Source: Burkholderiales bacterium
GTDB lineage: Bacteria > Pseudomonadota > Gammaproteobacteria > Burkholderiales > Burkholderiaceae_C
Assembly (NCBI GenBank): GCA_947462065.1
Contig: CANHNO010000001.1
Coordinates: 1-47,562 of the forward strand
DNA: 47,562 nt
Direction: 5' to 3'
Shown here piece by piece: positions 26,632 to 41,785 of the stretch. The notes beneath the pieces are model-generated. The model saw nothing but the letters and a program-made list of their open reading frames with translations. It had not been told where the DNA came from and made no database searches. Position 1 is the stretch's first letter. Each line of letters begins with the position of its first letter. The translations under genes and the position numbers were made by a program.

Positions 26632-26742
26632 GAGGCCGTCGTGGCAATCGGCGTACCGGCTGCGTCAAGTGCCGCAGGGCGTCGCGGCAGGAGCGCCGAT
26701 TGCCACGCTGCAAGCCTTCTCCTGCTGCGCGTCCGGCCTTTG

Positions 26743-27490: not shown

Positions 27491-27907
27491 TCAACCGCGG
27501 TCGCGACGTGCCGGGCGGGCCATGGGCACCGGTGCTGCCATGGGGGCAGGTGTTGCCATCGGCACCGGTGTTGCCATCGGCGCGGGTGTCGCCATGCGCT
27601 CGGTCTTCATGTCGGCAGAAGGCATTGCGGTGGTCGACGGGCTGCCATTGACCATCGAATCCGATGCCGGGGTCGGGTTGCGCATCGTGCGGCTCGACCC
27701 TGTGCCGGTTCCGGGTGTCTGTTCGCCATGGGCCGAGTTCGGCTCCCCATCGATCGGCCGGACCTGAAGCGGGTTCGGGCTCGTGGTGGAGTTCATCCTG
27801 CCTGGCACCGATGGCGCCGTGTCGTCACCGCTTTGTGCGCCGGCCAGGCCTGCGGCCACGAGCAGCGCCGCGGCAATGGCTGCCTTGTGATGGATGGGTT
27901 GATGCAT
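27491..27907 (-). CDS. exported Met/Pro-rich repeat protein
   Basis: 138 aa with a signal peptide MHQPIHHKAAIAAALLVAAGLAGA. The C-terminus is MATPAPMATPVPMATPAPMAAPVPMA. GGAG RBS. Confidence 0.6.
   Translation of the reverse strand: MHQPIHHKAAIAAALLVAAGLAGAQSGDDTAPSVPGRMNSTTSPNPLQVRPIDGEPNSAHGEQTPGTGTGSSRTMRNPTPASDSMVNGSPSTTAMPSADMKTERMATPAPMATPVPMATPAPMAAPVPMARPARRDRG
27521..27592. repeat. 4 x 18-bp tandem repeat inside the CDS
   Basis: Units catgggcaccggtgctgc, catgggggcaggtgttgc, catcggcaccggtgttgc, catcggcgcgggtgtcgc. They encode M-A-[TA]-P-[AV]-P hexapeptides on the minus strand. Confidence 0.85.
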
Positions 27908-27986
27908 GAGGGTGTCTCCAAATGGTTGAACGCGTCGCGCGTCGCCGCCGGAATGTGGCGGCGTGCAACGTCGTACACACATGGCG

Positions 27987-28001
27987 GCAAGCGATGTTCC
28001 C
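27987..28001 (-). promoter_or_regulatory. sigma-54-like -24/-12 element (weak -24)
   Basis: Minus-strand reading GGGAACA-tcgc-TTGC. GG-N10-GC spacing is correct. It lies 80 nt upstream of ATG 27907. Confidence 0.3.
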
Positions 28002-28017
28002 GCCGCCCGAAGCGAGG

Positions 28018-28032
28018 GGGAACACCGCTTGC
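28018..28032 (+). promoter_or_regulatory. sigma-54-like -24/-12 element (weak -24)
   Basis: GGGAACA-ccgc-TTGC, the mirror copy of the 27987-28001 element. It lies 53 nt upstream of ATG 28085. Confidence 0.3.
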
Positions 28033-28084
28033 CGTCCCAGACTGAAGGGCGACACTGCCAGCTCGCCCGAGAAGAAAGCAGGCC

Positions 28085-28276
28085 ATGAATACCCCGACTC
28101 CATCCGACGCTGCCGACCCTGCGGTGCCGACAGACGCATCCAGCCAGGATCAGACGATCCGATGGCACGCTGGAACGCTCGCAGATGACGACCTGACTGT
28201 TCTTGAAGGCGATGATCCAGACGCTGGATTTGTCTTTCTCGATCCCAAGGCATCCAGCCCGAGCGAGGGTAGCTAG
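28085..28276 (+). CDS. hypothetical acidic 63-aa protein (doubtful)
   Basis: ORF with only moderate GC3 bias and no clear RBS. Supported only by the promoter-like element upstream. Confidence 0.3.
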   Translation: MNTPTPSDAADPAVPTDASSQDQTIRWHAGTLADDDLTVLEGDDPDAGFVFLDPKASSPSEGS

Positions 28277-28316
28277 GCGGTGTAGCCAGCCAGGCGACAG
28301 TGCCGGCGCCCCATTG

Positions 28317-28333
28317 CCGTGCCGGGGGCACGG
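28317..28333. terminator. hairpin after the hybrid kinase stop
   Basis: CCGTGCC-ggg-GGCACGG, immediately downstream of the minus-strand stop at 28337. Confidence 0.35.
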
Positions 28334-28336
28334 AGT

Positions 28337-29854
28337 TCACGGGTGCGCGGCAGGGCCTTCAATGGCGCCATGCAGTGCGGCGACCAGCTCCGCCGGCTGA
28401 CACGGTTTGTCCAGCACGATGAAGTCTTCCCCGGCCAGGGTTTTTGCCGCGTAACCGCTGATCAGTACCACGGGCAGATCGGGGCAGGCGTCTCGCAGCA
28501 CGCGCGCCAGGCCCAGACCGTCCATGCCACCGGGCATCTTGATGTCCGACAGCACCACATCGAAAGCGGGTTCGTCGGCGATCAGGCGCAACGCGCCTTG
28601 CGGATCGACGACGCGACTCACCTCGCAGCCTAGCCGACTGAGCAGGGCCTCGGTCACTTCGGCAAGGTCGTCGTTGTCTTCCACCAGCAGCAATCGCGCG
28701 CCTTCGATCGAGGGTGCGGGGCTGTCGGGTTCCGCTGCGCCCAGGGGCGCCATGGCGTCCTCGCAGGCGGGTAGCAGCAGGGACACGGTGGTGCCCAACC
28801 CCTCGGTGCTGGTCAGCCGCGCGGTGCCGCCCGCCTGCACGCAGAAGCCCATCACCTGGGCCAGACTCAGTCCGGTGCCCTGGCCTGCTTCCTTGGTGGT
28901 GAAGAAGGGCTCGAAAACACGCCCGGCCACCTCGTCGTCGATGCCAAGGCCATCGTCGCTGACGGTGATCAGCACATAGTCGCCGTCCGGCAGGTCGGGC
29001 ACCTCATCGTCGTGCGCGCGTCTTGCCTGCAGGCGCAGGTGCCCGCCCAGGGGCATGGCATCGCGCGCATTCAGGCTCAGGTTGGTCAGCGCGAGCTCGA
29101 GTTCATGGGCGTCCACCCGGACCAGGGGTGTGCCCGGCGCCACCGCCACCGTGACCTCGGTGCGCGCGCCCGTCACCGTTTGCAGCAGATCCCGCAGCTC
29201 ATGCAGTGCGCCCGCCAGATCAATCGGCCTGGCGCATCCCGGCTGCTGCGCTGCGAAGCGCAGCAGCTGCTTTGTCAGACGGCTGCCGACGGCCACGGCC
29301 CGCAAGGTGGCGGCCAACGGTGCCTGCAGTTCGGCAGCGGCGGACTGGCGCTGCATCAGGTGGGCGCTGTTGCTGATCACGCCCAGCAGGTTGTTGAAAT
29401 CGTGCGCGACGCCGCCGGTCAGGCGTCCCAGCGCCTCGATGTGCTGGCTGCGCGAAATGCGCTGCTCGGCCTCGCGCGTTCGTGTCAAAGCTGCGGCGAC
29501 CTCGAGCTCGAGCTTGCTGCGGGAACTGCGCAATCCGTCGGCGGCCTGGGTCAGTGCCGCAGCGACTTCGTTGCATTCCGCGATTCCGGTGGCCTGTGTT
29601 GCCACCAACTCGCCGGCCTGCATGCGGTCTGCGGCCTGCTTCAGAGAGTGCAGCGGTGCGGTGATACGGCCTGCCATCCAGAAGGCAGCCCACATCGCCA
29701 GGCCCAGCAACAGCAGCGAACCTGCCGCAAGCTTCTGCACCGATTGCGGGTCGGCGGCGTCGTTGTCGATGACGAACCAAAGGACCGCCACCACGCCCGG
29801 CACCCAGACCGACATGACGAGCAGCAACAGGCGGGAGCGGATGGAAAGGGTCAT
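28337..29854 (-). CDS. hybrid sensor histidine kinase / response regulator
   Basis: Two TM segments with a short loop, HAMP-like linker, H-box GGVAHDFNNLL, HATPase (DDGLGI, GQGTGLSLAQV) and a C-terminal REC domain (LLLVEDNDD...SDIKMPGGMDG). Confidence 0.9.
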   Translation of the reverse strand: MTLSIRSRLLLLVMSVWVPGVVAVLWFVIDNDAADPQSVQKLAAGSLLLLGLAMWAAFWMAGRITAPLHSLKQAADRMQAGELVATQATGIAECNEVAAALTQAADGLRSSRSKLELEVAAALTRTREAEQRISRSQHIEALGRLTGGVAHDFNNLLGVISNSAHLMQRQSAAAELQAPLAATLRAVAVGSRLTKQLLRFAAQQPGCARPIDLAGALHELRDLLQTVTGARTEVTVAVAPGTPLVRVDAHELELALTNLSLNARDAMPLGGHLRLQARRAHDDEVPDLPDGDYVLITVSDDGLGIDDEVAGRVFEPFFTTKEAGQGTGLSLAQVMGFCVQAGGTARLTSTEGLGTTVSLLLPACEDAMAPLGAAEPDSPAPSIEGARLLLVEDNDDLAEVTEALLSRLGCEVSRVVDPQGALRLIADEPAFDVVLSDIKMPGGMDGLGLARVLRDACPDLPVVLISGYAAKTLAGEDFIVLDKPCQPAELVAALHGAIEGPAAHP

Positions 29855-29957
29855 CGAAGCGTTGCCGAATGTGAATCAACGTGCCACGCGAGCATGTCCC
29901 AGCGAGCGGGCCGGTTCTTGCAGGCATCGCAAGGCGTGCCTCAAGCCGTGCCACACG

Positions 29958-29972
29958 GCAATTGTCGTTCCC
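29958..29972 (-). promoter_or_regulatory. sigma-54-like -24/-12 element (weak -24)
   Basis: Minus-strand reading GGGAACG-acaa-TTGC. It lies 104 nt upstream of ATG 29854. Confidence 0.3.
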
Positions 29973-30015
29973 GGCCTGCACGCCAGCGCCGCGCGTGCAG
30001 GTATTTCTCGTGCGC

Positions 30016-30945
30016 TCAGCGTGCGGCGAGGTGTCCTTCGGCGTCGGAGAACAGCACTTCGACGCGACGGTTGCGCTGCCGACCCGCCGCGCTACCGTTG
30101 TCGGCCACCGGATTGGCCTCGCCCCAGGCGCGCACCTCGATGCGTTCGGCTGCGATGCCGCCGTTCATCAGCTCACGCTGGAAGGTTTGAGCCCGGCGCT
30201 GCGACAGCCTCATGTTCATCTCTTCTCTGCCCACGCTGTCGGTGAAGCCTTCGATCAGCACCCTGCGTTCGGGGTGACGGATCAGCACCTGCACCAGTTG
30301 TGCCACGCTGCGCTGAGCACCCGGTTGCAGGGTGGACTTGCCGGTGTCGAACAGCACGTCACCCAGCGTCACCACCATGCCACGGTCGGTCTTCTGGGCC
30401 TTCAGGTCGGCCAGATCGCGCTCGAGCCCTTCGGCACGGCCGGATTGCTTGAGCGCCAGCAGTCTTGCGGCGTCGGCTTGCTCCCTCGATATCTGCGAGT
30501 CGGTTTGTGCGTTGCGCGCATCGGCCTGCGCATCACGCGCATCGGCTTCTGCTGCGTGGGCGCTGGCGGTCGCCATATCCGCCTCGCTGGTGCGAGCCTG
30601 CAGCCGGACCTTTTCGCGCTCGGCAGTGAATTGCTGCACACGTTCGTCGGACTGCGCCTGCGTACCGATTGCCAACGCGATGTCGGCGCGCTTGCGCGCC
30701 AGGTAGGCGAGGTGTCGCGTCTGCTCCACATCGTGATCTGCGGCCCAGGCGGCTTCGGCGCGGGTCATCGCCTGCTGGGCGCTCTGCAACTCGACGGCGC
30801 CGCTGCGCCCGACGTAGGGGTTGCTGTTCGCCTGGTCCAGCGAACTGCGCGCGGCGACCAGGTCGGGATTCGGGCCGGGGGTGGTCTGGCAGGCGGCAAG
30901 TGCCAGCAGCGTGGCGGTGGCAATCAGGGTGCGGGTGGTGTTCAT
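30016..30945 (-). CDS. DUF4398 - OmpA-family lipoprotein
   Basis: Lipobox LLALAAC. N-terminal DUF4398-like helical domain. C-terminal OmpA_C (FDTGKSTL...GFTDSVG...NRRVEV). Start at ATG 30945 (MNTTRT). Confidence 0.85.
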   Translation of the reverse strand: MNTTRTLIATATLLALAACQTTPGPNPDLVAARSSLDQANSNPYVGRSGAVELQSAQQAMTRAEAAWAADHDVEQTRHLAYLARKRADIALAIGTQAQSDERVQQFTAEREKVRLQARTSEADMATASAHAAEADARDAQADARNAQTDSQISREQADAARLLALKQSGRAEGLERDLADLKAQKTDRGMVVTLGDVLFDTGKSTLQPGAQRSVAQLVQVLIRHPERRVLIEGFTDSVGREEMNMRLSQRRAQTFQRELMNGGIAAERIEVRAWGEANPVADNGSAAGRQRNRRVEVLFSDAEGHLAAR

Positions 30946-30972
30946 GGTGTGTTCCGTCAGTTCATGCAAAGG

Positions 30973-31362
30973 TCAGGGCATCGGGCGGGGGGCTTGCTTC
31001 GCCGCCGCGCGGTTGAGTTCGTCGCGCAGCGTCTGCAGGCCGGTTTCCAACTCGGCGACCGCCAGTCGCGAGCGTTCCGAGCCGGCCTTGGCTCGGGCGA
31101 GCTGGGCATCGACATCCGCCTGCTCGGCCATGCGCATCGCAGCCCGGTCGTCGCCAGCAGCGGCCAGCGCACGAGCCTTCTCCAGCTTGTTGCGCGCTTC
31201 GTTCAGATCGACGGCATCGAGCTCCGGCGCACCGGCCGAGCGGGCGGCTTCCACCGAAGCGGCGCCCGCGGCAATGGACGGCGCCGCCGAGGGCGCGCTG
31301 CCGCAACTGGCCAAGGCGATGGCGCAGGTGGCCAGCACGGTGGTGAGGATCAGTGTCTTCAT
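30973..31362 (-). CDS. DUF4398-like lipoprotein
   Basis: 129 aa with lipobox ALASCGS. The helical body resembles the N-terminal domain of the next gene. GGAG RBS. Confidence 0.7.
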   Translation of the reverse strand: MKTLILTTVLATCAIALASCGSAPSAAPSIAAGAASVEAARSAGAPELDAVDLNEARNKLEKARALAAAGDDRAAMRMAEQADVDAQLARAKAGSERSRLAVAELETGLQTLRDELNRAAAKQAPRPMP

Positions 31363-31406
31363 GCGATGTCTCCAGGGAGTGTTCAAAGGGTTGTTTCTTC
31401 GCTGGG

Positions 31407-31421
31407 GCAATCGACGCGCCC
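31407..31421 (-). promoter_or_regulatory. sigma-54-type promoter candidate
   Basis: Minus-strand reading GGGCGCG-tcga-TTGC. It lies 45 nt upstream of ATG 31362. Confidence 0.45.
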
Positions 31422-31653
31422 GGGTCAACATCGGGCCGTGCAGGAGCGGCATTTGCCGTCCATCGGCATTCGCATGTCCGGTGGTGTCCTCTCCAGGGCG
31501 GCGCAGTTGCAGGCGCATGCGCAGATCGAGATGGAACCGTTCTACCCGGCGCTGGACCTGGACACGCTCGGCGCCGGCATGGCCGTGCGCCGCGGTGAAT
31601 TGCCGGGCGAGCAGGGCTCGGACTGAGCAGCCCCGGGCCTTGGCCGCCGCGAC

Positions 31654-33312
31654 TCAGGCGGGTTGCTGCGGGCTGGCCTCGACCGTCACGGGCGCGAGAG
31701 GCAGCGTGACGACGAATTCGCTGCCCATGCCCTTGCCGGCGCTGTGTGCCGTGACGGTGCCGCCATGCGCTTTCACCAGTTCTTCCACCACCGTCAGGCC
31801 CAGCCCCAGCCCGTTGGTGTTGAACTTGTGGGCAGCCTCGTCCTGCATGAACGGCTCGAAGATGTGCGGGAGGGCTCGCTCATGGATGCCAATGCCGTTG
31901 TCGCGCACCGTCAGCACCACCGCGTCGACGCTGCGGCTCATCGACAACACGATCTCGCCCGAAATCGGCGTGTACTTCGATGCGTTGTCCAGCAGGTTGC
32001 GCAGCACCTGCGCCAGCCGTACCGGGTCGCAGTTCAACGCCAACTCGCCCGGCTGCAGATGCACCAGGAAGTGTTGCAGCCGGGTGTCGATCGCCGGACG
32101 GCTGGCCTCGACCACGTCGTTGATGAGTGTGATCAGATTCACCTCACTGAGCTCCAGCCGCAGCTTGCTGCCTTGCGCACGCGACACATCGAGCAGGTCA
32201 CTGACCAGCCGTGACATCTGTGCCGCCTGTCGCTCGATCACTGCATTTATCCGTGGCAGTGGAGGTGGAATGTCTTCGCTGGCGATCAGCGCGGATGCGT
32301 TGCGGATCGCCGTCAATGGCGAACGCAACTCGTGAACCGCTTGTGCCATTCGCAGGTTGTGCCGCTTCAGTGCTTTCTCGGCAGCGTCCTGCAGCCGTTT
32401 TGCATCGAGTGCGCCGAGCAGCAACTTCTCGTTGGCCTCCTGGAGCAATTGGTGCCGCTCCACATGCGCGTTGATGGCCTCCTGGGAACTGGTCACGGGC
32501 AGGCGCAGCGACTCGGGAAAGGCGACTTGCAATGCGTGGCCGGAAACAGGATCGGAAGCCTTGGACACCGCATAGCCCAAGCCCCGCCGCTTTGCCTCGT
32601 ACATGGCGGCGTCTGCCGCGTCGATCAGCGTGGTCACATCTTCACCATCGTCGGGGTACACGCTGATGCCGATGCTGGCGCTCAAGCGCAGCACATGTCC
32701 GGCGAGTTGCGTCGGCACAGCGAGCGCGGCATTGATCTTGTCGGCAATGGCGCCGGCATCGCTGGCGTGCGCCACATCGTCGAGCAGGATCAGGAATTCA
32801 TCGCCCCCAAAGCGACTGACGGTGTCCGAGGCGCGAACGACCGAAACCATGCAACGGGCGGCCAGTTGCAAAACCTGATCGCCGAAGTGGTGTCCCAGCG
32901 CGTCGTTGACCTGCTTGAAGCCATTCAGGTCGACAAACAGCACTGCCATGCGGCGATTGCGACGTCGCCCCCCGGCGATGGCCTGGGTGAAACGGTCGAG
33001 GAACAGCATCCGGTTGGGCAGCTGTGTCAGTGCGTCGAGCGCGGCCACACGAGACATTTCCAACATCGAACGCATCGCCTCGTCGGATTCGACCTTCGAC
33101 TGCATCAGCGCCAGCACCAGCTGCTCGTTGGCTTCCAGCAGATCGGAGGCCTTGCCGGAGTCGGCCACAGGGCTTCGCGCCTCAGACCTGTCATCCCGCA
33201 GGGACTGCAGTGCCCTGCGCGCCCTGTCTACCTCGGTGCGCAATTCGAGCAACTCAAGCCTGGCGCGGACCAACTCTGCGTTGTCGGCGTCGCTGTGACC
33301 CGGATCGTTCAT
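31654..33312 (-). CDS. GGDEF diguanylate cyclase fused to a HisKA-HATPase histidine kinase
   Basis: N-terminal coiled coil. An apparently intact GGDEF domain (RASD I-site-like RxxD five residues before RFGGDEF). H-box HELRSPLTAI. N box LLDNASKYT, G boxes DNGIGI and GLGLGL. Confidence 0.88.
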   Translation of the reverse strand: MNDPGHSDADNAELVRARLELLELRTEVDRARRALQSLRDDRSEARSPVADSGKASDLLEANEQLVLALMQSKVESDEAMRSMLEMSRVAALDALTQLPNRMLFLDRFTQAIAGGRRRNRRMAVLFVDLNGFKQVNDALGHHFGDQVLQLAARCMVSVVRASDTVSRFGGDEFLILLDDVAHASDAGAIADKINAALAVPTQLAGHVLRLSASIGISVYPDDGEDVTTLIDAADAAMYEAKRRGLGYAVSKASDPVSGHALQVAFPESLRLPVTSSQEAINAHVERHQLLQEANEKLLLGALDAKRLQDAAEKALKRHNLRMAQAVHELRSPLTAIRNASALIASEDIPPPLPRINAVIERQAAQMSRLVSDLLDVSRAQGSKLRLELSEVNLITLINDVVEASRPAIDTRLQHFLVHLQPGELALNCDPVRLAQVLRNLLDNASKYTPISGEIVLSMSRSVDAVVLTVRDNGIGIHERALPHIFEPFMQDEAAHKFNTNGLGLGLTVVEELVKAHGGTVTAHSAGKGMGSEFVVTLPLAPVTVEASPQQPA

Positions 33313-33335
33313 GGATTCACTCCGGTCGCTCTGCT

Positions 33336-34871
33336 TCAGAGAAGCCCGCGTTCGGGATCGGAGCGAGTCATCGCAGCCACGGTCTTTTGGGTCGGTCGAC
33401 CGCCCAGTAGCCCTTCCTGGTCAACGAGCCTGCTGCCAATGTGAATGCCGTCGCCTTCGATGTGGAACTCGCGCAGTTCGTCGGAATGCGCGCTGGCACG
33501 CACCTTCACCACGGCCATCACGCGACGCAGGCGACTGTCGACCTCGATGTAGCGCTGCACGATGATCGCGTCGGTCATGAACGCGGTGCCATAGGGGCTG
33601 AAGCGCAGGTCGGTGTAGCGGTCCTCGAGCTCGGAGGTCATCAGCATCGTCACGCCGGCCCCGGTCATCGCCTTCACCAGTCGCGACATCGACTCGCGGA
33701 AGTCGTCTCGGAAGGTCGGGGCGACCGACAGCTCGAAGCTGGAGAGCGAATCAATGACGACGCGCGTGGCCTTCAGTCGGCGGATCTCGTCGAGCAGCAG
33801 CATCACGATCTCGTCGATCGACAGATCGGGCGCGCGGCTGTCCACCACGCCGACCTGGCCGCTGGCGATCAGTTCGGTGACCAGCCGGTTGCGCGAGCGG
33901 TTCGGGTGCTGCTCGAACACCGCGATGACGCCGGTCTCGCCGAGGCGCGCGCCTTCGGCGAGGAACGCGGCTGCGAGGATGCTCTTGCCCGAACCGGATG
34001 GTCCGGCGACCAGCAGCGAATAACCCCGTGGCAGTCCGCCGCCCATCATCTCGTCGAGGTGCGGCACCCCCATCGGGACGCGCGAACTCGATGTCGACGC
34101 GGGTGCGGCTGACGGGGCCGCGAGCGCGATCGAGCCGGCAGTGTCCTCGCCCTGTGGTTGCGAGATGGCAGGCGCGAAAACGCGCACGCCGCTCGGGTCG
34201 ATGCGAAAGGTATGCAGCCCGGGCAGCGTGGGCTGGCCGCGCATCTTCATGATCTCCATCTTGCGCACCACCGAATTGCGCATCACGCTCTGACGCATCC
34301 AGATCAGGCCGTCGGCCACAGTGAACACCGGGTTTGCGTCCGTCTCGTCGAAGCACTCTCCGATCAGGAAGGTGGTGGCCTGCCAGCTGGTCATCAGCAT
34401 GCCGAGCTGCTGCACGAACGATTGGAGATTCGTACGTGGATCGGGCGCGGTCTGCTGGGCAGCGTTGGCCAGCACCACCGAGCGGAACGAGTCGACGAAC
34501 ACCAGCGACGGGCCGTGGGTGGTCACTTCTTCGACGATGCGGCGCAGCACACGGTCGAGATCGCCGGCCATGGCCTCCTCGGACAGGTTGATGAAGCGGA
34601 TCGCGCGCGTCACCGCCTCGGTGTCGAAGAAATCGAACTGCTGCTGGTAGCGAAGCATCTTCAGCGGCGGCTCGCCCAGCACGGTGAAGTACAGCGCAGG
34701 TCGTTCGGGCGTTGCCAGCGCAAACATGATCTGGTGAGCGAGCGTGGTCTTGCCGCAGCCGGGCTGCCCGGCTATCAGGTTGAACGAGAACTCCGGCAGC
34801 CCACCGCCGAGCACCTCGTCCAGCCCCGGCACGCCGGTGCGCAGGCGGTTGATGGTCACTTTGGTGTTCAT
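33336..34871 (-). CDS. KaiC-like double RecA-domain ATPase
   Basis: 511 aa. TGVPGLDEVLGGGLP with Walker A GQPGCGKTT in domain 1. GVPHLDEMMGGGLP with GPSGSGKS in domain 2. Start at ATG 34871. Confidence 0.85.
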   Translation of the reverse strand: MNTKVTINRLRTGVPGLDEVLGGGLPEFSFNLIAGQPGCGKTTLAHQIMFALATPERPALYFTVLGEPPLKMLRYQQQFDFFDTEAVTRAIRFINLSEEAMAGDLDRVLRRIVEEVTTHGPSLVFVDSFRSVVLANAAQQTAPDPRTNLQSFVQQLGMLMTSWQATTFLIGECFDETDANPVFTVADGLIWMRQSVMRNSVVRKMEIMKMRGQPTLPGLHTFRIDPSGVRVFAPAISQPQGEDTAGSIALAAPSAAPASTSSSRVPMGVPHLDEMMGGGLPRGYSLLVAGPSGSGKSILAAAFLAEGARLGETGVIAVFEQHPNRSRNRLVTELIASGQVGVVDSRAPDLSIDEIVMLLLDEIRRLKATRVVIDSLSSFELSVAPTFRDDFRESMSRLVKAMTGAGVTMLMTSELEDRYTDLRFSPYGTAFMTDAIIVQRYIEVDSRLRRVMAVVKVRASAHSDELREFHIEGDGIHIGSRLVDQEGLLGGRPTQKTVAAMTRSDPERGLL

Positions 34872-35311
34872 GGCTTGGGATCCTTGGCAGCGGAGTCGCT
34901 CGACGTGGCGACCCACACAGGGCGTATCAGTCGCTCGGTCAACGAGGGCCCGACCACGCTGGACAACAGATCGTGGAAGGTGGTGAAAAGCGTGGTGGCA
35001 CCAGCCATGGCAGCAACGGCGCTCTGCTGGCAAAGCAGTGGGGTCAATTCGGAGAAGTCGGCGACGGCTGGTGCGACGTCATCAGCCACGCTCAGCCACT
35101 GGTGGTCTTGCGCGGTGATGTGGACGCTGCGCTGGTAGAGCGCAGCCAAACCGCGTTTGCCGATGATCGGCACCAACACCGCATCAATTCCGCCCCAGGT
35201 GACGAGGACGGCGTCTGCAATCTGTGCGCTATCGGCGCTCGGCGGGACCCTGCTCGCGAAATGGGTTGCTACCGAAACGCCCAACGGGTTTTCCGTGGAC
35301 ATCGTCAGCAA
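34868..35311 (-). CDS. hypothetical protein, first gene of the KaiC-like operon
   Basis: 147 aa (or 144 aa from ATG 35302) with GC3-biased codons. ATGA overlap with the KaiC-like start. No family recognised. Confidence 0.55.
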   Translation of the reverse strand: MLTMSTENPLGVSVATHFASRVPPSADSAQIADAVLVTWGGIDAVLVPIIGKRGLAALYQRSVHITAQDHQWLSVADDVAPAVADFSELTPLLCQQSAVAAMAGATTLFTTFHDLLSSVVGPSLTERLIRPVWVATSSDSAAKDPKP

Positions 35312-35389
35312 TCTTTCTGTGCGTGGACTTTGATACTAAGCGTCGTGCCCGCGATCGGGAACAAAAAATGTGTCACGGTTTGATTCACA

Positions 35390-35404
35390 GCAAACGGCGT
35401 GCCG
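35390..35404 (-). promoter_or_regulatory. sigma-54-type promoter
   Basis: Minus-strand reading CGGCACG-ccgt-TTGC(T), a near-consensus match to TGGCACG-N4-TTGCW. It lies about 80 nt upstream of start 35311. Confidence 0.6.
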
Positions 35405-35485
35405 CGGCGGCGCATGAACCCGACTTGCTTTTTTTGGGAAGGGCGTTTGGCACGCGCAAATCGGCAAGATTTACCGCAAGGCTCT

Positions 35486-35508
35486 CCGCATCGGTAAACG
35501 CGATGCGG
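35486..35508. promoter_or_regulatory. palindrome midway between divergent sigma-54 promoters (candidate activator site)
   Basis: CCGCATCG-gtaaacg-CGATGCGG. It lies about 95-115 bp from both -12 elements. Confidence 0.3.
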
Positions 35509-35605
35509 CCGCGGCGCTTGCTCACTGCGGTGCGCTCCCGCATCACAGTCCAAACGCCGGGCGTGCGGGCTGTTTGGGCGACGAGGGCTGCGCCTGGCCT
35601 CGGCA

Positions 35606-35620
35606 CGGCACGGGGGTTGC
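35606..35620 (+). promoter_or_regulatory. sigma-54-type promoter upstream of the rpoN paralog
   Basis: CGGCACG-gggg-TTGC(G), 64 nt upstream of TTG 35684. Confidence 0.55.
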
Positions 35621-35683
35621 GATCAGAAACACCAAAGACGAGCCAAACGGCTGGTCTCTCAACACTCCTTCAGGAGCCTCCCG

Positions 35684-37147
35684 TTGTCATCGCTGCATTT
35701 CTTGGCCGACACGCGACACGCACAGACGCTGTCGCCACGCTTTCAGCATGCGGTGCGTCTGCTGCAGCTGTCTTCGATGGACTTCGCCGCGACGGTGCGC
35801 GATGTGTTGGGCCAGAACCCATTCCTCGAACTCGAAGAGGGCCTGTCCGACGGTGACGGTTCAGGCGACGATGGCGAGGCTGACCGCAGCGACGACGAGC
35901 GTGTCGAGGCGGACGCGCCCTATGACGGCAACACGCTGTCCGCTGCCATGGACGGGATGTCCGATGAGCGGAGTGACGACCGAGAGCTGTGGCAGGTCGA
36001 TGCGCCGTCGTCGCAGCGGCCGGCGGGTGACGGCGATCTGTCGGCGCTGGACATGATGGCGGTCGAAACGCCGTTGAATGCGCACCTCAACGCCCAGCTC
36101 GATCTGCAGCCCTTGGCCACCCGGGAGCGGTGGCTCGCGCGCACCATCGTCGAATCGCTCGACGACGACGGCTACCTGCGTGCATCGCTGGCTGAACTGT
36201 GCGAGCTGTGCGAGTTGAGCCCGCCGATCCGGCTGTCTGAGATGCAGGCGGCATTGGTGCGTGTGCAGGCGCTGGACCCGGCGGGTGTGGCGGCGTGCAG
36301 TGTGGCCGAGTGCCTTCGGCTGCAACTGCCATCGATCGAATGCCCGCAGCTGCGCGCACTGGCTGAGCGCGTGTTGAACCAGCACCTGGGGCTGCTGGCG
36401 GCACGCGATGTCCCTGCGCTGGCGCGCTCGCTGGGTGAGCCCGTGTCGAGGATGCAGCAGGTGTGCGATCGCATTCGTCGACTCGATCCGCGGCCGGGCT
36501 GGCGGTTCAGCTCGACGCGCATTGCCTATGTGGTGCCCGATGTGGTGGTGAAGAAAGTTCGCGGCGAATGGCGGGTGCACCTGAACCCGTCGGTGATCCC
36601 TCGCGTTCGCCTCAATCAGATGTATGCCGACCTGTTCAAGCGTCACCGCACCCCATCCCACGCCGACATGGCGAGTCAGTTGCAGGAAGCGCGGTGGACC
36701 GTCAAGAACGTCGAGCAGCGCTTTTCGACCATCCTCGACGTCGCCGAAGCGATCGTCAGGCGGCAGCGGCATTTCCTCGAGTTCGGACCGATGGCGATGA
36801 AGCCCCTGGGCCTGAAGGAGATCGCCGACGAACTCGGCATCCATGAATCGACCGTCTCGCGGGTGACCAACAACAAGTTCATCGCCACACCCAGTGGCGT
36901 GTTCGAGCTGAAGCACTTCTTCTCCCGAGCGATGGTCACGGCCAATGGCAGCACGTGCTCCGGCACCGCGATCCGCGGTTTGCTCAAGGACATGATCGCT
37001 GCAGAGGCACCGCAGTCGCCGCTGTCCGACGCCGAGATCACGCGGCAACTGGCGCAGCAGGGGCTGGTGGTCGCACGTCGCACCGTCACCAAGTACCGGC
37101 AGTTGCTGCGCATCGATGCGGTCGAGCGCCGGCGCCGGCAGGCCTGA
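35684..37147 (+). CDS. rpoN: RNA polymerase sigma-54 factor (probable second copy)
   Basis: Region I TLSPRFQHAVRLLQLSS, acidic region II, HTH GIHESTVSRVTNNKF, and RpoN box ARRTVTKYR. TTG start as given by the ORF track. Confidence 0.9.
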   Translation: MSSLHFLADTRHAQTLSPRFQHAVRLLQLSSMDFAATVRDVLGQNPFLELEEGLSDGDGSGDDGEADRSDDERVEADAPYDGNTLSAAMDGMSDERSDDRELWQVDAPSSQRPAGDGDLSALDMMAVETPLNAHLNAQLDLQPLATRERWLARTIVESLDDDGYLRASLAELCELCELSPPIRLSEMQAALVRVQALDPAGVAACSVAECLRLQLPSIECPQLRALAERVLNQHLGLLAARDVPALARSLGEPVSRMQQVCDRIRRLDPRPGWRFSSTRIAYVVPDVVVKKVRGEWRVHLNPSVIPRVRLNQMYADLFKRHRTPSHADMASQLQEARWTVKNVEQRFSTILDVAEAIVRRQRHFLEFGPMAMKPLGLKEIADELGIHESTVSRVTNNKFIATPSGVFELKHFFSRAMVTANGSTCSGTAIRGLLKDMIAAEAPQSPLSDAEITRQLAQQGLVVARRTVTKYRQLLRIDAVERRRRQA

Positions 37148-37168
37148 CCGTGCGGTGGGCGCTCCATG

Positions 37169-37183
37169 CGGCACGTCGCTTGC
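37169..37183 (+). promoter_or_regulatory. sigma-54-type promoter
   Basis: CGGCACG-tcgc-TTGC(C), 22 nt after the rpoN stop and 82 nt upstream of ATG 37265. Confidence 0.6.
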
Positions 37184-37264
37184 CAATGGTTACATCGACA
37201 GCGGTACCGAGCCCTTGCTGCCGCGTCGGATGGTTTGCCGTGCCTTGAACCCTGGAGTACCCCA

Positions 37265-37855
37265 ATGAACACCGACATGGATCTGATCAAGCGCTGGCCG
37301 CAGGCGGTCACGCTGGATATCGCCGTTCACTACGAACGCAGCGCGCCCGACCGGCGGACCTATCGCCTTGCACCCTGCGATCGCACGCCGCTGGTTCGGG
37401 TGATGACTCCCCAGCACCGTGGGTCCCCGCTTGAACTGCAGCGAATGAATTGGTCGCAGTTGCCGGGCCGCACGCTGTACCTGCGCAGCCTGGGTGTGCT
37501 GGCGGTTCACTTGTTTGGCGAAGCGGCGATGCCGCCGCGTGCGCGCGGCGCGCCGCTGTGGCAACACATCAGCGCCGGCATCTCGACCGATCAGAACGCT
37601 GCCCACCAGATCTACTTCGAACTGGATGCGGTTGACGACGCGCAGGCGGTGCTGCGTTACCGCTGCTCCGAAACTCAGCCGCCGGTCCGGCGGGTGGTCG
37701 CGCTCGATGTGCTCGACGCTGATCCGCTTCGCGCGCTGTTGCGCATTGGCATGGCGCGGGTCCGGCCGGTCCTGATGAGCAATGCAACGCTCGCGCCCTC
37801 TGCGCCGCATACCAGGCACGTTCATGTGGCGCCTGAGCTGGCGCAGCAAGCGTGA
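37265..37855 (+). CDS. hypothetical protein
   Basis: 196 aa from ATG 37265 (MNTDMDLIKRW). No family recognised. Confidence 0.5.
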   Translation: MNTDMDLIKRWPQAVTLDIAVHYERSAPDRRTYRLAPCDRTPLVRVMTPQHRGSPLELQRMNWSQLPGRTLYLRSLGVLAVHLFGEAAMPPRARGAPLWQHISAGISTDQNAAHQIYFELDAVDDAQAVLRYRCSETQPPVRRVVALDVLDADPLRALLRIGMARVRPVLMSNATLAPSAPHTRHVHVAPELAQQA

Positions 37856-37880
37856 CCCGTTCCCCGCATCAGCTGCTGCC

Positions 37881-38564
37881 ATGATTGCCGTGATCATCTC
37901 GGCACGCAACGACGAGGCGCACCTCGGTACCTGCCTGCGGTCGGTGCGCGAGGCCTCGCGCCGACGCCGCCTGGGCGGCGAGGCGGTGCTGAGGCTGGTT
38001 GTGCTCGACACCTGTACCGACGGCAGCGCGGCCATCGCCCGCGATGGCGGTGCGCACACGCTGAGGCTGCAGACGGGCAACATCGGGGCGGCGCGGGCGC
38101 AGGGCGCGCAGTGGGCTGTAGACCGCAGCGCACGCTGGCTGGCGTTCACCGATGCCGAGTCTGTCGTGGCCCCCGACTGGCTGTCGATCCAGGTGGCGCT
38201 CGGCACCGATGTGGTCTGCGGGACGGTCGGTGTGCGGGACTGGGGCGAGGACGGCGAGCGCCTGCGTCGCCACTACGACGCCCACTACACCGATGCCGAT
38301 GGGCACCAGCACATCCATGGTGCCAATCTGGGTGTCAGCGCCGATGCCTATCGCCGCGCAGGCGGCTTCCATCCGATGGCGATCAGCGACGATGTGGCGC
38401 TGGTGCGCGCGCTGCAGGCCAGTGGGGCGACGATCGCCTGGTCGGCGGCGCCCCGGGTATCGACCAGCGCCCAGCGCCTGTTCAGCGCACCAGTCGGCTT
38501 CGGCGCGACCGCTCAGCGAATCGATGCCGAGAACCGCGCTTTTGGCACGGGGGCCGCTGCGTGA
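37881..38564 (+). CDS. glycosyltransferase family 2 protein
   Basis: MIAVIISARNDEAHLGTCL...DTCTDGS...FTDAES, GT-A/GT2 N-terminal signatures including a DxD-like DAE. Confidence 0.75.
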   Translation: MIAVIISARNDEAHLGTCLRSVREASRRRRLGGEAVLRLVVLDTCTDGSAAIARDGGAHTLRLQTGNIGAARAQGAQWAVDRSARWLAFTDAESVVAPDWLSIQVALGTDVVCGTVGVRDWGEDGERLRRHYDAHYTDADGHQHIHGANLGVSADAYRRAGGFHPMAISDDVALVRALQASGATIAWSAAPRVSTSAQRLFSAPVGFGATAQRIDAENRAFGTGAAA

Positions 38565-38788
38565 ATGCGATACGCACGCTCAGCAGTGAAGCTGCTGACA
38601 CCCTGCTGCCCGGACCGCTTCGCTGGAACCCGACACTGGTGCGCCTGCGCGCCTGCCTGCTGGCGCAACGGCCTGACCGCGACGCGGTGGAGGAGGTCTG
38701 CAGCCGCCTGCTGACCCCAGCCCGCTCAGGCGCGGATGACCTGGCCACGACCAGCCCGGCGGTGCCGTTGGGCGCCCGGTCAGACTGA
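38561..38788 (+). CDS. hypothetical small protein (doubtful)
   Basis: The GTG at 38561 overlaps the GT2 stop as GTGA. 75 aa with no homology recognised. Confidence 0.3.
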   Translation: MNAIRTLSSEAADTLLPGPLRWNPTLVRLRACLLAQRPDRDAVEEVCSRLLTPARSGADDLATTSPAVPLGARSD

Positions 38789-38856
38789 GAGGTCCGGTAC
38801 CGATCCTGCCGGGTTGGTCCGATCGCTCGCCACATTCGACGCAACCCTCTCTGGGC

Positions 38857-38871
38857 CGGCATGTCGTTTGC
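38857..38871 (+). promoter_or_regulatory. sigma-54-type promoter
   Basis: CGGCATG-tcgt-TTGC(C), 51 nt upstream of ATG 38922. Confidence 0.5.
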
Positions 38872-38921
38872 CATGGTCAGGCATGAAGTGCCATTGCGAA
38901 ACCCCATCCTCCCGCTTTGCG

Positions 38922-39668
38922 ATGCCCGCCCCGTTGCGCAGTGCAGCGTTGGACATCAGCCAAAGTGCCCACAAGAATCGCCTGCTGGCGCGGCTGCCTG
39001 ATGAGGCATGGCAGCGCTGGCTTCCGCAGCTCGAATGGGTCGATTTTCAGCAGGGACAGGTATTGCACGAGTCGGGCACCTTGCCCAGCCACGCCTACTT
39101 CCCGACAACGGCCATCCTGTCGCTGCTCAACGTGACGCAGGATGGCGCCTCGACCGAAATCGCTGCTGTCGGCAATGAGGGATTGGTCGGGGTGTCGCTG
39201 TTCATGGGCGGTGTCTCGACCTGCAGCCGTGCCGTGGTTCAAAGCGCTGGCTTCGGGTTGCGACTGAGGGCGCAGGCGATGCGGGCCGAGTTCGAGCGGT
39301 CTCCCGAGGTGATGCAGGTTCTGCTGCGCTACACCCAGGCACTGATGACGCAGATGGGCCAGACGGCAGTGTGCAACCGCCACCATTCGATCGAGCAGCA
39401 ACTGTGCCGCTGCCTGCTGTTGAACCTGGACCGGCTGGGGGGCAATGAGATCGTCATGACCCATGAGCTGATCGCCGGCACGCTGGGCGTGCGCCGCGAG
39501 GGGGTCACCGAAACGGCACTCAAGCTGCAGGCGGCCGGCTTGATCCGCTACGCGCGTGGGCACATCACCGTGCTCGATCGCCGCGGGCTGGAGAGCCGCG
39601 CCTGCGAGTGCTATGAGGTGGTGAGGAAGGAATACGATCGATTGCTGACGGACAGAATGGCCGCTTGA
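38922..39668 (+). CDS. Crp/Fnr family transcriptional regulator
   Basis: cNMP-binding-like beta-barrel (NRLLARLP...YFPTTAILSLL...VGNEGLVG) and a C-terminal HTH (THELIAGTLGVRREGVTETALKLQAAGLI). Alternative ATG at 38883. Confidence 0.85.
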   Translation: MPAPLRSAALDISQSAHKNRLLARLPDEAWQRWLPQLEWVDFQQGQVLHESGTLPSHAYFPTTAILSLLNVTQDGASTEIAAVGNEGLVGVSLFMGGVSTCSRAVVQSAGFGLRLRAQAMRAEFERSPEVMQVLLRYTQALMTQMGQTAVCNRHHSIEQQLCRCLLLNLDRLGGNEIVMTHELIAGTLGVRREGVTETALKLQAAGLIRYARGHITVLDRRGLESRACECYEVVRKEYDRLLTDRMAA

Positions 39669-39828
39669 TCGGGCCCGAAGCACTGGCTGGTGCTGTGTGA
39701 GGGAACTTCGCTGAACCGCGGCGACTCACTCCCCGGCGCACGACGGCCCGATATCATTGACCGAGCCTTTTTTGTATCAGTGCCACGGCGGCCTCCGCCG
39801 CATCCCGAGAGTCCGCCTTTTACCGCCC

Positions 39829-41127: not shown

Positions 41128-41220
41128 TGTCTGCCACCGATCGAAGCATTCCGAATCAGACCGTTTGTTGTTCCATTACCTTTCACCGCTGATAATTTCT
41201 TAACTTGACAAGGAGTCCCC

Positions 41221-41775: not shown

Positions 41776-41785
41776 GGTTGGGTTG

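Follow-up and report, generated by a model that had tools for sequence, protein, structure and literature searches.

A putative regulatory island around a non-housekeeping sigma-54 gene and clustered sigma-54-type promoter elements in a Rubrivivax-like member of the Burkholderiales

The window analysed here, the whole 47,562-nt stretch of contig CANHNO010000001.1 from a Rubrivivax-like member of the Burkholderiales, contains a regulatory island (24.5-39.7 kb) with an apparently specialised, non-housekeeping sigma-54 at its centre. In a 13-kb stretch of the island, at least 11 GG-N10-GC elements were found, each lying ahead of and pointing at a gene or operon. Rubrivivax gelatinosus and 80 related genomes showed the same arrangement of elements around rpoN.

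The sigma-54 gene (35684..37147, plus strand, TTG start) encodes a complete protein with all three domains (Pfam AID, CBD and DBD), the HTH and the RpoN box, and it matched solved sigma-54 structures at 2e-86. Its lineage forms separate clusters with a signature of its own, SPRLQH, VTNNK and ARRTVTKYR, where canonical representatives have TPQLQQ, VTTQK and ARRTVAKYR, and invariant changes affect all of Region I, HTH and RpoN box. LptB, HPF or PtsN adjoined rpoN in 0 of 82 loci of the island lineage, and a canonical-type protein sits in the order kdsD-kdsC-lptC-lptA-lptB-rpoN-ptsN-hprK. The island sigma-54 is a distinct, non-housekeeping lineage, and domains, signature and context confirmed that the elements cluster at a complete sigma-54 gene of this kind. 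Lineage and context also suggest that this rpoN is a paralog, as originally named.

An NtrC-type enhancer-binding protein (24491..25924, plus; start probably ATG 24491) is encoded just outside the stretch in which the original prediction had placed the promoter cluster. It contains a REC domain, a sigma-54 interaction AAA+ domain with a GSFTGA loop and a Fis-type HTH (Pfam Sigma54_activat 5.8e-68, Response_reg and HTH_8), and it reached no NCBIfam equivalog cut-off. An orthologue with 57-97% identity was located at most 10 kb from rpoN in 40 of 80 loci, and no activator gene was found within 10 kb of the rpoN copy of R. gelatinosus. Near rpoN, many distant loci encode homologues (about 50% identity) of the hybrid histidine kinase (28337..29854, minus; Pfam HAMP, HisKA, HATPase_c and REC). 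Both the NtrC-type activator and several hybrid kinases show genomic linkage to rpoN.

The gene identities originally assigned were correct. On the minus strand, hyp144 (34868..35302), without a family match and syntenic in 12 loci, is the first gene of an operon with a two-domain KaiC-like ATPase (33336..34870; Pfam KaiC 2.4e-67, under the NCBIfam KaiC cut-offs), whose true start is ATG 34870 according to the ATGA overlap with the hyp144 stop and GC3 by frame. A GGDEF-HisKA-HATPase_c protein (31654..33312, minus; Pfam) follows, and then a DUF4398 lipoprotein (30973..31362, minus; Pfam), with its true start at ATG 31362 behind a conserved GGAGAC Shine-Dalgarno sequence, and a DUF4398-OmpA protein (30016..30969, minus; Pfam). 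Further left lie a 63-aa acidic protein (28085..28276, plus; 83% identical in related locus L001), a Met-rich secreted protein with a signal peptide, MATPxPMA repeats and no Pfam match (27491..27907, minus), the 222-aa hyp222 (26743..27411, plus), without a family match in Pfam or NCBIfam, and a HAD-IIIA (GmhB/histidinol-phosphatase-like) hydrolase (25960..26631, minus; Pfam, NCBIfam; start uncertain, 26631 or 26604) with orthologues in L004, L008, L039 and L040. Downstream of rpoN, all on the plus strand, are the orphan protein hyp196 (37265..37855; 41 family members, fold predicted as beta4-alpha x2), a family 2 glycosyltransferase (37782..38564; Pfam), a 75-aa ORF (38561..38788) coupled to the glycosyltransferase gene by a GTGA overlap, and a Crp/Fnr-family regulator (38883..39668; Pfam HTH_Crp_2 and cNMP_binding) starting with MKCHCE. 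The ATG and the MKCxCE N-terminus of this regulator were conserved and in frame in 12 loci.

All eight elements of the original prediction were present in the sequence at the places and on the strands given, and the case proved stronger than had been noted; the site list was incomplete, as three more were found. Four elements surround rpoN and the genes downstream. Site A (GGCACG-CCGT-TTGC(T), 35390..35403, minus; 19.4 bits in the lineage matrix described below) lies 88 nt upstream of hyp144 and was found in 8 of 13 syntenic sources. Site B (CGGCACG-GGGG-TTGC-GA, 35607..35620, plus), 64 nt upstream of rpoN, was kept in all 13, with 96% identity versus 39% in the flanks; a strict site preceded rpoN in 67 sources, and an unsupervised motif search in 66 non-syntenic rpoN upstream regions returned tGGCAyGGgnGTTGCrt. 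Site C (GGCACG-TCGC-TTGCC, 37170..37184, plus; 20.5 bits), with the rpoN stop 22 nt behind it and hyp196 82 nt ahead, was kept in 12 of 12 loci. Site D (GGCATG-TCGT-TTGCC, 38858..38872, plus), the best lineage-matrix match of the window (22.2 bits), was kept in 12 of 13 sources. The predicted distance of 45-104 nt to the start codon did not hold for site D, whose GC lies 11 nt ahead of the conserved Crp-family ATG 38883; the distance was 11-12 nt in every source that keeps the site.

In the left part, site E (GGCGCG-TCGA-TTGCC, 31406..31420, minus; 15.8 bits) lies 45 nt upstream of the DUF4398 lipoprotein gene, with fixed positions identical in 6 of 7 loci and flanks 42% identical. Back to back with it is site E' (GGAGCG-GCAT-TTGCC, 31443..31457, plus; 8.6 bits), the first of the three missed elements, kept in L001, L004, L003 (GGAACAGTCTTTGCC) and L007; behind it lies a 50-aa hemerythrin gene remnant (31474..31626, plus; hemerythrin HHE motif by tblastn), with fuller copies in L002, L006 and L007. 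Site F (GGAACG-ACAA-TTGCC, 29957..29971, minus; 14.0 bits), 104 nt ahead of the hybrid kinase gene, was kept only in close relatives (the window, L001 and L057); in L004 it has lost the GC, and L003 lacks the site. Sites G (GGAACA-TCGC-TTGCC, 27986..28000, minus; 80 nt to the ATG of the Met-rich protein) and H (GGAACA-CCGC-TTGCC, 28019..28033, plus; 53 nt to the ATG of the 63-aa acidic protein gene), both of 15.1 bits, are back-to-back divergent elements, each forming one arm of a 16-nt inverted repeat. Site H was kept in L001 and L004, and L004 also keeps a divergent partner, GGAGCGTCGATTGCC. The other two missed elements are class II-like. The element at 26643..26657 (GGTACG-CCGA-TTGCC, minus) faces the HAD gene, is the fourth best lineage-matrix match (17.2 bits) and has a full match in the L004 orthologue, GGCATGCCGCTTGCC. 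The element at 26690..26704 (GGAGCG-CCGA-TTGCC, plus) faces hyp222 and is weak (11.0 bits), with GGCACATGGTTTGCC as its orthologue in L004; in 4 other loci, homologues of hyp222 (cluster 15) follow strict sites. Sites F and E' and the element at 26690 are either weak or conserved in close relatives only.

Conservation in orthologous loci, as the original prediction expected, was found for the rpoN, hyp196, Crp-family and DUF4398 sites, with fixed positions 92-100% identical and flanks 34-42%, and for site F only in close relatives. Five of the at least 11 elements are phylogenetic footprints. That orthologous loci keep the fixed positions while the flanks diverge argues for conserved, directional sigma-54-type promoter elements, as had been predicted.

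Raw motif counts by themselves are modest evidence. The motif GGCACG-N4-TTGC, thought to occur by chance well under once, was expected 0.43 times, in fair agreement, and occurs three times (at least three in 0 of 100 shuffles). The corresponding figures were 4 versus 0.80 expected for GGCAYG-N4-TTGC (at least four in 1 of 100 shuffles) and 11 versus 1.52 expected for GGNRYR-N4-TTGCC (at least 11 in 0 of 100 shuffles). The original prediction was to fall if a matrix scored the sites no better than background. With a generic E. coli-style sigma-54 matrix, our own approximation, the sites did not rise above the coding background of the window, so with that matrix the finding would fail this test. 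In contrast, a lineage matrix trained on 203 sites solely from distant non-syntenic relatives placed its best 11 matches in the window all in intergenic sequence, which makes up about 12% of it; these were the eight reported sites, 26641-26659 (minus), 26688-26706 (plus) and a doubtful match at 46950-46968. With a cut-off of 12 bits, 10 matches were seen versus 2.98 expected (none of 300 simulations reached 10), and with one of 15 bits, 7 versus 0.44 (0 of 300). Related loci contained 299 strict sites within 1.34 Mb, and R. gelatinosus had 6 sites versus 0.19 expected, all of them upstream of called genes. Downstream of the elements, the start codon lay either 11-13 nt away or no closer than 30 nt, which fits a transcription start about 12 nt past the GC, and divergent intergenic regions held one site for each direction.

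The elements fell into two classes. Class I, before rpoN, reads [T/C]GGCAYG-GGnG-TTGC followed by G, A or T, and class II reads GGCAYG-nCGn-TTGCC without a T ahead of GG. A C directly after the GC was found in 0 of 67 class I sites versus 207 of 238 (87%) class II sites, and a T ahead of GG in 51% versus 7%, although class I sites are mutually orthologous, so that this contrast comprises fewer independent events than the counts suggest. We infer that class I may be read by one sigma-54 and class II by the other. Furthermore, a palindromic upstream element, GGCAAGATTTACCGCAA with the core GGCAA-N3-TTRCC (35463..35479), is a conserved block in 12 syntenic loci, sits 100-150 nt upstream of the rpoN promoter and was recovered de novo from 306 upstream regions. 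Of its 78 places, 54, from 54 of 82 sources, fall between 100 and 330 nt ahead of the rpoN start; this zone amounts to 1.3% of the sequence. The element has one copy in the whole window, which by itself does not account for activation of the other ten promoters, and it is a candidate activator-binding site common to sites A and B. The regulon had been called self-contained, which is doubtful: the rpoN promoter is of a different, more canonical class with its own palindrome, and start-up by another sigma-54 fits this better than a closed loop.

These features suggest a cascade. An island kinase would phosphorylate the NtrC-type activator, which would bind the palindrome between the divergent promoters A and B and switch on rpoN via the class I promoter, probably with housekeeping sigma-54 present beforehand. 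The new island sigma-54 would then guide RNA polymerase to the class II promoters, which would require an ATPase activator too, and these may drive the KaiC-like/GGDEF-kinase operon, the DUF4398/OmpA lipoproteins, the hybrid kinase, the small secreted proteins, the hyp196-glycosyltransferase operon and the Crp-family regulator.

Alternatively, the ordinary sigma-54 might read all promoters, the island copy being a spare, or a titrator of core polymerase or activators, without promoter preference. The island protein does retain the residues that read GG and GC (HTH E and R, RpoN box arginines), the two classes have an identical fixed core, and rpoN2 of R. solanacearum likewise stands behind a canonical sigma-54 site, TTGGCACAGCCTTTGCAT. 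Nevertheless, class II departs from the canonical consensus exactly where class I agrees, the Region I, HTH and RpoN box changes are invariant in the lineage, and rpoN stays beside these promoters in at least 82 genomes, and we consider this explanation unlikely. It is more improbable still that the island rpoN is the only copy of the genome, moved from lptB, with the cluster as a dense part of a general sigma-54 regulon. Neither the window nor any 21-kb related locus contained a second rpoN; however, related metagenome genomes have the canonical type in its lptB-ptsN context, the island lineage clusters apart, a sigma-54-dependent promoter before the sole sigma-54 gene would pose a start-up problem, and the lptB-rpoN cluster is, to our knowledge, near-universal in Betaproteobacteria. 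That the class II elements are bound by a dimeric transcription factor and are not promoters is scarcely credible: GGCA-N7-TGCC is nearly palindromic, the C after GC raises the symmetry and the palindrome shares the GGCAA/TTGCC half-site, but the halves are without exception GGCAY on the left and TTGCC on the right, every element turns its TTGCC end to the gene, a divergent gene pair has two elements instead of a single one, the GG-N10-GC spacing is strict, start codons keep the distances given above and the elements cluster at rpoN and an AAA+ activator gene.

The original interpretation was supported in its elements and sigma-54 context, and not in its self-containment or its label, as envelope/signalling proved too narrow. 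In relatives, genes behind such promoters encode BON, hemerythrin, catalase, lipocalin, Transgly_assoc, DUF2383, PNPOx-like and CBS proteins, and this promoter-driven cargo is a general-stress-type set. Specialised sigma-54 copies are already known in other bacteria; we know of no account of this sigma-54 lineage or of its promoter flavour or gene set. The best explanation for the whole, which we regard as probable from the sequence comparisons, is an island with a specialised sigma-54, its activator, two promoter classes and a cascade of the kind proposed. The promoter cluster, the second-type rpoN and the matching activator look like a dedicated stress/envelope switch, whose output would be a stress, envelope and second-messenger programme.

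The gene at the centre of the island, the 24.5-39.7 kb part of the window, encodes a protein (35684-37147, plus strand) in which all three sigma-54 domains were detected (PF00309, 1.9e-8; PF04963, 6.3e-53; PF04552, 1.2e-57), together with the helix-turn-helix (HTH) motif HESTVSRVT and the RpoN box ARRTVTKYR. It aligned end to end with solved sigma-54 structures (2.3e-86) and passed the TIGR02395 rpoN_sigma model (407.6 bits, cut-off 277), which identifies it as a sigma-54 (RpoN) protein. Its domain architecture is identical to that of the housekeeping factor encoded in lptC-lptA-lptB-rpoN-hpf/ptsN-hprK, whereas it scored under the cut-offs of the PRK05932-type equivalog models. Two cleanly separated signatures were found among 150 cluster representatives. 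Region I reads [ST]PRLQ[HQR]AVRLLQ in the island lineage and TPQLQQ[AS]IRLLQ in the canonical type, the HTH reads HESTVSRVTNNK and HESTISRVTTQK, and the RpoN box ARRTVTKYR and ARRTVAKYR, respectively. The canonical-type protein of a 5.3-Mb Burkholderiales contig lies in the context kdsD-kdsC-lptC-lptA-lptB-rpoN-ptsN-hprK-rapZ. By contrast, the housekeeping context, with lptB upstream and hpf/ptsN downstream, was missing in 82/82 island-type loci: tblastn gave no match to HPF or PtsN in any of them and no adjacent LptB in any (0/82), the sole LptB matches being ABC-type ATPases several kb from rpoN. In the window, rpoN is flanked by a KaiC-like operon and hyp196-GT2. Given its own signature, and a housekeeping context absent from the 82 loci and present for the canonical type, the island rpoN is a member of a separate, non-housekeeping lineage. 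No genome with both a canonical and an island-type rpoN was found in the representative, cluster and homologue searches or on the contig of the canonical-type protein. Since the lptB-rpoN cluster is, to our knowledge, near-universal, a second, housekeeping rpoN in the same genome is very likely, and we infer that the island gene is a paralog.

The original prediction had named eight GG-N10-GC elements around this gene, and all eight are present in the window on the predicted strands. As in -24/-12 promoters, GG and GC are exactly 10 nt apart within GGCAYR-N4-TTGC; four window sites match this pattern in full and seven others deviate once in the -24 hexamer. The canonical flanks (T before GG, A or T after GC; TGGCAC-N5-TTGCW) are not those of most island elements. 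GGCACG-N4-TTGC was found 3 times (0.43 expected), GGCAYG-N4-TTGC 4 times (0.80 expected) and GGNRYR-N4-TTGCC 11 times (1.52 expected), counts that were reached in 0, 1 and 0 of 100 dinucleotide-preserving shuffles, respectively. With a generic sigma-54 matrix, our approximation of the published consensus, the sites scored only 8.5-11.8 of 24.6 bits and were not separated from coding background in the window scan. Neither the counts nor the generic scores would suffice alone to carry the finding. When a matrix was derived from the rpoN-upstream class instead, with the spacer kept neutral, four window matches reached at least 13 bits against 2.6 expected. From the 225-nt regions preceding rpoN in 66 non-syntenic loci, unsupervised expectation-maximisation recovered the motif tGGCAyGGgnGTTGCrt de novo.

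Because generic scoring is uninformative in this genome (the window has 65% G+C), the generic matrix was replaced by a lineage matrix, trained on 203 other strict sites from non-syntenic loci only and then applied to the window. Its best 11 window matches were all intergenic, although intergenic sequence makes up about 12% of the window, and they comprised the eight predicted sites, two sites at 26.6 kb and a doubtful one at 46950. Matches of at least 12 bits numbered 10 against 2.98 expected, and those of at least 15 bits 7 against 0.44, neither count being equalled in 300 simulations. A position weight matrix scan had been proposed as a check on the cluster; in the window it set the sites apart with the lineage-appropriate matrix and left them in the background with the generic one. 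On the lineage matrix, therefore, the sites do not score like background. Three further elements had escaped the original prediction: 26643-26657 (minus) and 26690-26704 (plus), both with a full match in the related locus L004, and 31443-31457 (plus), kept in L001, L003, L004 and L007. The match at 46950-46968 was left out, as it lies in a low-G+C stretch after two tRNA-Lys genes and faces the 3' end of an ORF. A search for sigma-70 promoters and terminators at 24-40 kb gave nothing exceeding shuffle expectation, and an Rfam search of the window returned two tRNAs and nothing else.

Conservation was measured in orthologous upstream regions anchored on the motif: pairwise identities were averaged for the ten fixed positions and, separately, for the flanks. 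The fixed positions reached 96% against 39% in the flanks upstream of rpoN (present in 13/13 sources), 94% against 39% upstream of hyp196 (12/12), 97% against 34% upstream of the Crp-family gene (12/13) and 100% against 42% upstream of the DUF4398 lipoprotein gene (6/7). The conservation expected of real promoters in orthologous loci was thus borne out in these four site groups. The element of hyp144 (site A) was present in 8/13 sources, that of the hybrid kinase gene was confined to close relatives, and the divergent pair at about 28.0 kb, between the genes of the Met-rich and the 63-aa protein, had counterparts in L001 and L004. At all sites the TTGC(C) end points to the adjacent gene. Where two genes diverge, at 26.6, 28.0, 31.4 and 35.4-35.6 kb, there are two back-to-back elements. 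In R. gelatinosus, whose complete genome (CP181388.1) has its island copy at 1,167,394-1,188,827, six strict sites were found against 0.19 expected (0/100 shuffles), all just upstream of a called gene and correctly oriented. A symmetric transcription-factor site would be an alternative reading of such repeated elements; one oriented element per gene, and two where genes diverge, argue against it. The elements are intergenic, face genes and are conserved in orthologous loci, as expected of -24/-12 promoters. In the back-to-back pairs at 27986-28033, 31406-31457 and 26643-26704, the GG ends are a mere 19-33 nt apart, a space too small for an activator site, and two polymerase complexes could hardly occupy one pair simultaneously.

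The strict sites fall into two classes, class I being the promoter of rpoN itself (n=67) and class II every other strict site (n=238). The base before GG is T in 51% and C in 40% of class I sites, against T in 7% of class II; the spacer reads GGnG in class I and nCGn in class II; and GC is followed by G (57%), A (24%) or T (19%) in class I, against C in 87% of class II. A C after GC was thus found in 0/67 class I and 207/238 class II sites (Fisher 1e-43), and since the class I sites are orthologues, the number of independent observations is smaller than these counts imply. Despite this orthology, G, A and T each occur after GC in class I and C never does. All window sites other than A and B, the elements of hyp144 and rpoN, end in TTGCC, and most have CG in the spacer, features that the original prediction had left unfixed. 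As read from these sequences, class II may be a promoter subclass used privately by the island sigma-54.

Spacing to the start codon gave indirect information on where transcription begins. The Crp-family gene (38883-39668, plus) starts at ATG 38883: this ATG and the N-terminus MKCxCE were invariant in 12 loci, and the frame stayed open across variable sequence with in-frame indels. The ATG at 38922 was not conserved. The -12 GC of the element before this gene sits 11-12 nt ahead of the conserved ATG in 12/12 loci (window 38858-38885), and the bases between them are unconserved, often with no Shine-Dalgarno sequence. Around 309 strict sites, the ATGs of long ORFs with strong codon bias peaked 11-13 nt after GC (18 cases), were almost lacking at 5-10 and 14-30 nt, and reappeared from about 30 nt. 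Crp orthologues account for 12 of the 18. The PoxB-like gene of L044 (14314-14342) has the same geometry as an independent case, its Pfam N-terminal domain beginning at residue 4 and no Shine-Dalgarno sequence preceding its ATG; the remaining cases are doubtful. The same geometry was rejected for the HAD gene and in L038, L039 and L046, where the real starts are probably further downstream. Should transcription start 12 nt after the C of GC, as it usually does with sigma-54, the Crp-family and PoxB-like mRNAs are predicted to be leaderless transcripts of sigma-54-type promoters; read-through from upstream into the Crp-family gene is possible. We know of no described leaderless transcript from a sigma-54 promoter. 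Start codons placed either 11-13 or at least 30 nt after GC lend indirect support to a transcription start about 12 nt after GC.

An NtrC-class enhancer-binding protein is encoded at 24491-25924 (plus), beyond the stretch covered by the original prediction. It combines a receiver domain (REC, PF00072), an AAA+ domain (PF00158, 5.8e-68) with the loop GSFTGA, one conservative change from GAFTGA, and a Fis-type HTH (PF02954); no named equivalog model in NCBIfam attained its cut-off. An orthologue (57-97% identity) lies at most 10 kb from rpoN in 40/80 loci. In Caldimonas-type loci rpoN is followed by a PAS-HisKA-HATPase-REC kinase gene with its own sigma-54-type promoter and then by the activator gene, and in three loci the activator and rpoN are divergently adjacent. 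By genomic linkage, the activator is a candidate cognate partner of the island rpoN. A second motif, GGCAAnAnTT[AG]CCGCAA with the core palindrome GGCAA-N3-TTRCC, emerged de novo from 306 promoter-upstream regions. Of its 78 places, 54 (in 54/82 sources) fall within a zone 100-330 nt ahead of the rpoN start codon that accounts for 1.3% of the sequence. In the window it occurs once, even with up to three mismatches allowed, as GGCAAGATTTACCGCAA at 35463-35479, where 68 nt separate it from site A and 136 nt from site B. It was therefore rejected as an upstream site common to all island promoters, being tied across loci to rpoN alone. Its position and shape fit a site for an enhancer-binding protein, for which the linked activator is a candidate.

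The gene identities of the original prediction proved correct by Pfam, NCBIfam and sequence reading. Between the activator gene and rpoN, the minus strand carries the genes of a HAD-IIIA hydrolase (25960-26631), the Met-rich secreted protein (27491-27907), a hybrid kinase (28337-29854), a DUF4398-OmpA protein (30016-30969), a DUF4398 lipoprotein (30973-31362), a GGDEF-HisKA-HATPase protein (31654-33312), a two-domain KaiC-like ATPase (33336-34870) and hyp144 (34868-35302), and the plus strand those of hyp222 (26743-27411) and a 63-aa acidic protein (28085-28276). Downstream of rpoN, all on the plus strand, are hyp196 (37265-37855), GT2 (37782-38564), a 75-aa ORF (38561-38788), the Crp-family gene and tolB-pal-cpoB (39757-42571). 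The cargo of the window promoters comprises signalling proteins (KaiC-like ATPase, GGDEF kinase, hybrid kinase, Crp-family regulator), envelope proteins (DUF4398/OmpA, GT2, HAD phosphatase) and small secreted proteins. The KaiC-like protein scored 206.8 bits against a cut-off of 408 (NF006799) and 113.9 against 546 (TIGR02655), and the Pfam/NCBIfam gene map has no KaiB-like gene among its neighbours; it is therefore named KaiC-like only. Its true start overlaps the hyp144 stop at 34868-34871 (ATGA); if the KaiC-like ORF is extended to 35033, third-position G+C within the overlap is poor (0.58, compared with 0.78 for the hyp144 frame). The first gene after rpoN, hyp196, belongs to an orphan family of 41 proteins only, none of them named. 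AlphaFold predicts a beta4-alpha x2 topology for it with good confidence (pLDDT 82), and its best fold matches, Whirly proteins, are weak (E 7e-3, TM ~0.2). The secreted protein at 27491-27907 (minus) has Met-rich repeats MATPAPMATPVPMATPAPMAAPVPMA and no family match, and is reminiscent of Met-rich metal-binding periplasmic proteins. The DUF4398 pair (30016-31362, minus) presumably resembles the PA3691-lptF operon of Pseudomonas aeruginosa, which is under envelope-stress control. A 50-aa hemerythrin gene remnant (31474-31626, plus) lies behind its own conserved promoter-like element at 31443-31457, with fuller copies in L002, L006 and L007. Outside the island, a chemotaxis-like set on the minus strand (17336-22001) encodes a CheX-domain protein, a short MCP signalling-domain protein and a 4HB-HAMP-Hpt-HATPase (CheA-like) protein, and adjoins an EAL-GGDEF protein gene (15019-16881). 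At 43413-47562, two tRNA-Lys genes (UUU and CUU anticodons) precede a fall in G+C to ~0.59-0.60 up to the window end, with an 882-aa ORF (44214-46862) that has no Pfam match; this region may be an integrated island.

A scan with the sigma-54 protein, one genome per species, gave 80 related loci from Rubrivivax, other Sphaerotilaceae, Hydrogenophaga, Caldimonas, Delftia, Comamonas, Ideonella and Aquabacterium, the closest relative being a Rubrivivax MAG (95% identity). Synteny with the window was seen in twelve loci; the others have rpoN alone in common, often plus the activator and hybrid kinase genes. In the relatives, class II sites precede genes for BON-domain lipoproteins, hemerythrins, a KatE-type catalase, lipocalin, Transgly_assoc (YeaQ-like) and Phage_holin_3_6 family proteins, DUF2383, PNPOx-like and CBS proteins, topoisomerase IB, PLD, an OmpA-like barrel, GT4 and a PoxB-like enzyme. 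General stress regulons are those of RpoS in Gammaproteobacteria, SigB in Firmicutes and EcfG in Alphaproteobacteria, and their typical cargo comprises BON/OsmY-like proteins, KatE-type catalase, Blc lipocalin, YeaQ/Transgly_assoc, DUF2383, PNPOx-like 'general stress protein', PoxB-like, CBS and hemerythrin proteins. By its overlap with this content, the class II cargo of the relatives can be regarded as a general-stress-type set. RpoS, SigB and EcfG are sigma-70-family factors, which work without an ATPase activator; unlike theirs, the island promoters are of the -24/-12 type, and an AAA+ activator together with a sigma-54 would form the switch.

Several known systems have secondary sigma-54 factors. 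Rhodobacter sphaeroides has more than one sigma-54 type, each with its own activators, and its RpoN paralogues have promoter subsets distinguished at the position beside the -12 GC. These specialised paralogues, RpoN1-4, were reportedly described by Poggio and colleagues in 2002 and 2006. Similarly, the two promoter classes of the island differ most sharply beside the -12 GC, and a dedicated activator is linked to its rpoN, although here promoter specificity is deduced from sequence. The island differs in lying in another phylum branch, the Betaproteobacteria, in carrying stress, envelope and signalling genes instead of nif or fli cargo, and in that a sigma-54 promoter, which has an upstream palindrome of its own, precedes the sigma gene itself. 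In Rhizobium etli, rpoN2 is NifA- and RpoN1-dependent. Like this gene and the megaplasmid rpoN2 of Ralstonia solanacearum, the island rpoN, a probable secondary copy, is preceded by a sigma-54-type promoter and has the gene of an enhancer-binding protein a few kb off. In R. solanacearum, TTGGCACAGCCTTTGCAT lies ~65 nt upstream of rpoN_2 (L081 megaplasmid, 6879-6892) and a 'sigma-54-dependent Fis family regulator' gene 3 kb from it; on a Comamonadaceae plasmid (L082, 7905-7918), an element precedes another secondary rpoN, again with an enhancer-binding-protein gene nearby. In both, the GGCAYR-N4-TTGC element is 40-65 nt upstream of the rpoN start. A secondary rpoN behind a sigma-54 promoter is thus a known, recurring theme. 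Membership of the island gene in the Ralstonia rpoN2 orthologous group was rejected: the R. solanacearum protein is 44% identical to that of the window, no closer than other sigma-54 proteins, and it departs from the island lineage in the HTH and in the RpoN box, which reads ARRTVAKYR. Its locus, with 2 sites in 15 kb, also lacks the dense promoter cluster. We know of no description of the island lineage with its TTGCC promoter class, palindrome, stress-type cargo and abutting start codons.

The original prediction had proposed a self-contained sigma-54 regulon. This is supported in part: the cluster is real, and at its centre is a specialised sigma-54 to which an activator is linked, whereas "self-contained" is doubtful, since the distinct class I promoter points to a cascade that would need another sigma-54 for start-up. 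For Sphaerotilaceae and Comamonadaceae we tentatively propose a two-step sigma-54 cascade, which, taken jointly with activator start-up, a private promoter class, a stress programme and leaderless transcripts, we consider rather unlikely to be right in every part. Under stress, a phosphorylated NtrC-type activator would bind GGCAA-N3-TTRCC, and the housekeeping sigma-54 would transcribe the gene of the second. The latter, with altered Region I, HTH and RpoN box residues, would favour the private class GGCAYG-nCGn-TTGCC and drive a general-stress, envelope and c-di-GMP programme, elsewhere the job of RpoS, SigB or EcfG. Some of its promoters (Crp-family regulator, PoxB-like enzyme) would abut the start codon and yield leaderless sigma-54 transcripts. 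The link to the KaiC-like ATPase and the GGDEF kinase suggests ways in which timing or feedback of the programme could work.

Sigma-54 is usually viewed as a single factor per cell that serves many unrelated activators, and we know of few cases of a second copy with its own promoters and activators. If the proposal is true, the contrast between the two classes would be a natural system for how sigma-54 reads the bases that adjoin the -12 GC and precede the -24 GG, and in culturable species this contrast, the leaderless prediction and the KaiC/GGDEF link would become directly testable. Many environmental Burkholderiales (Rubrivivax, Hydrogenophaga, Caldimonas, Delftia, Ideonella and others) would then run a general-stress-type programme through an ATP-dependent, tightly off/on sigma-54 switch in place of a stress sigma factor of the sigma-70 family.
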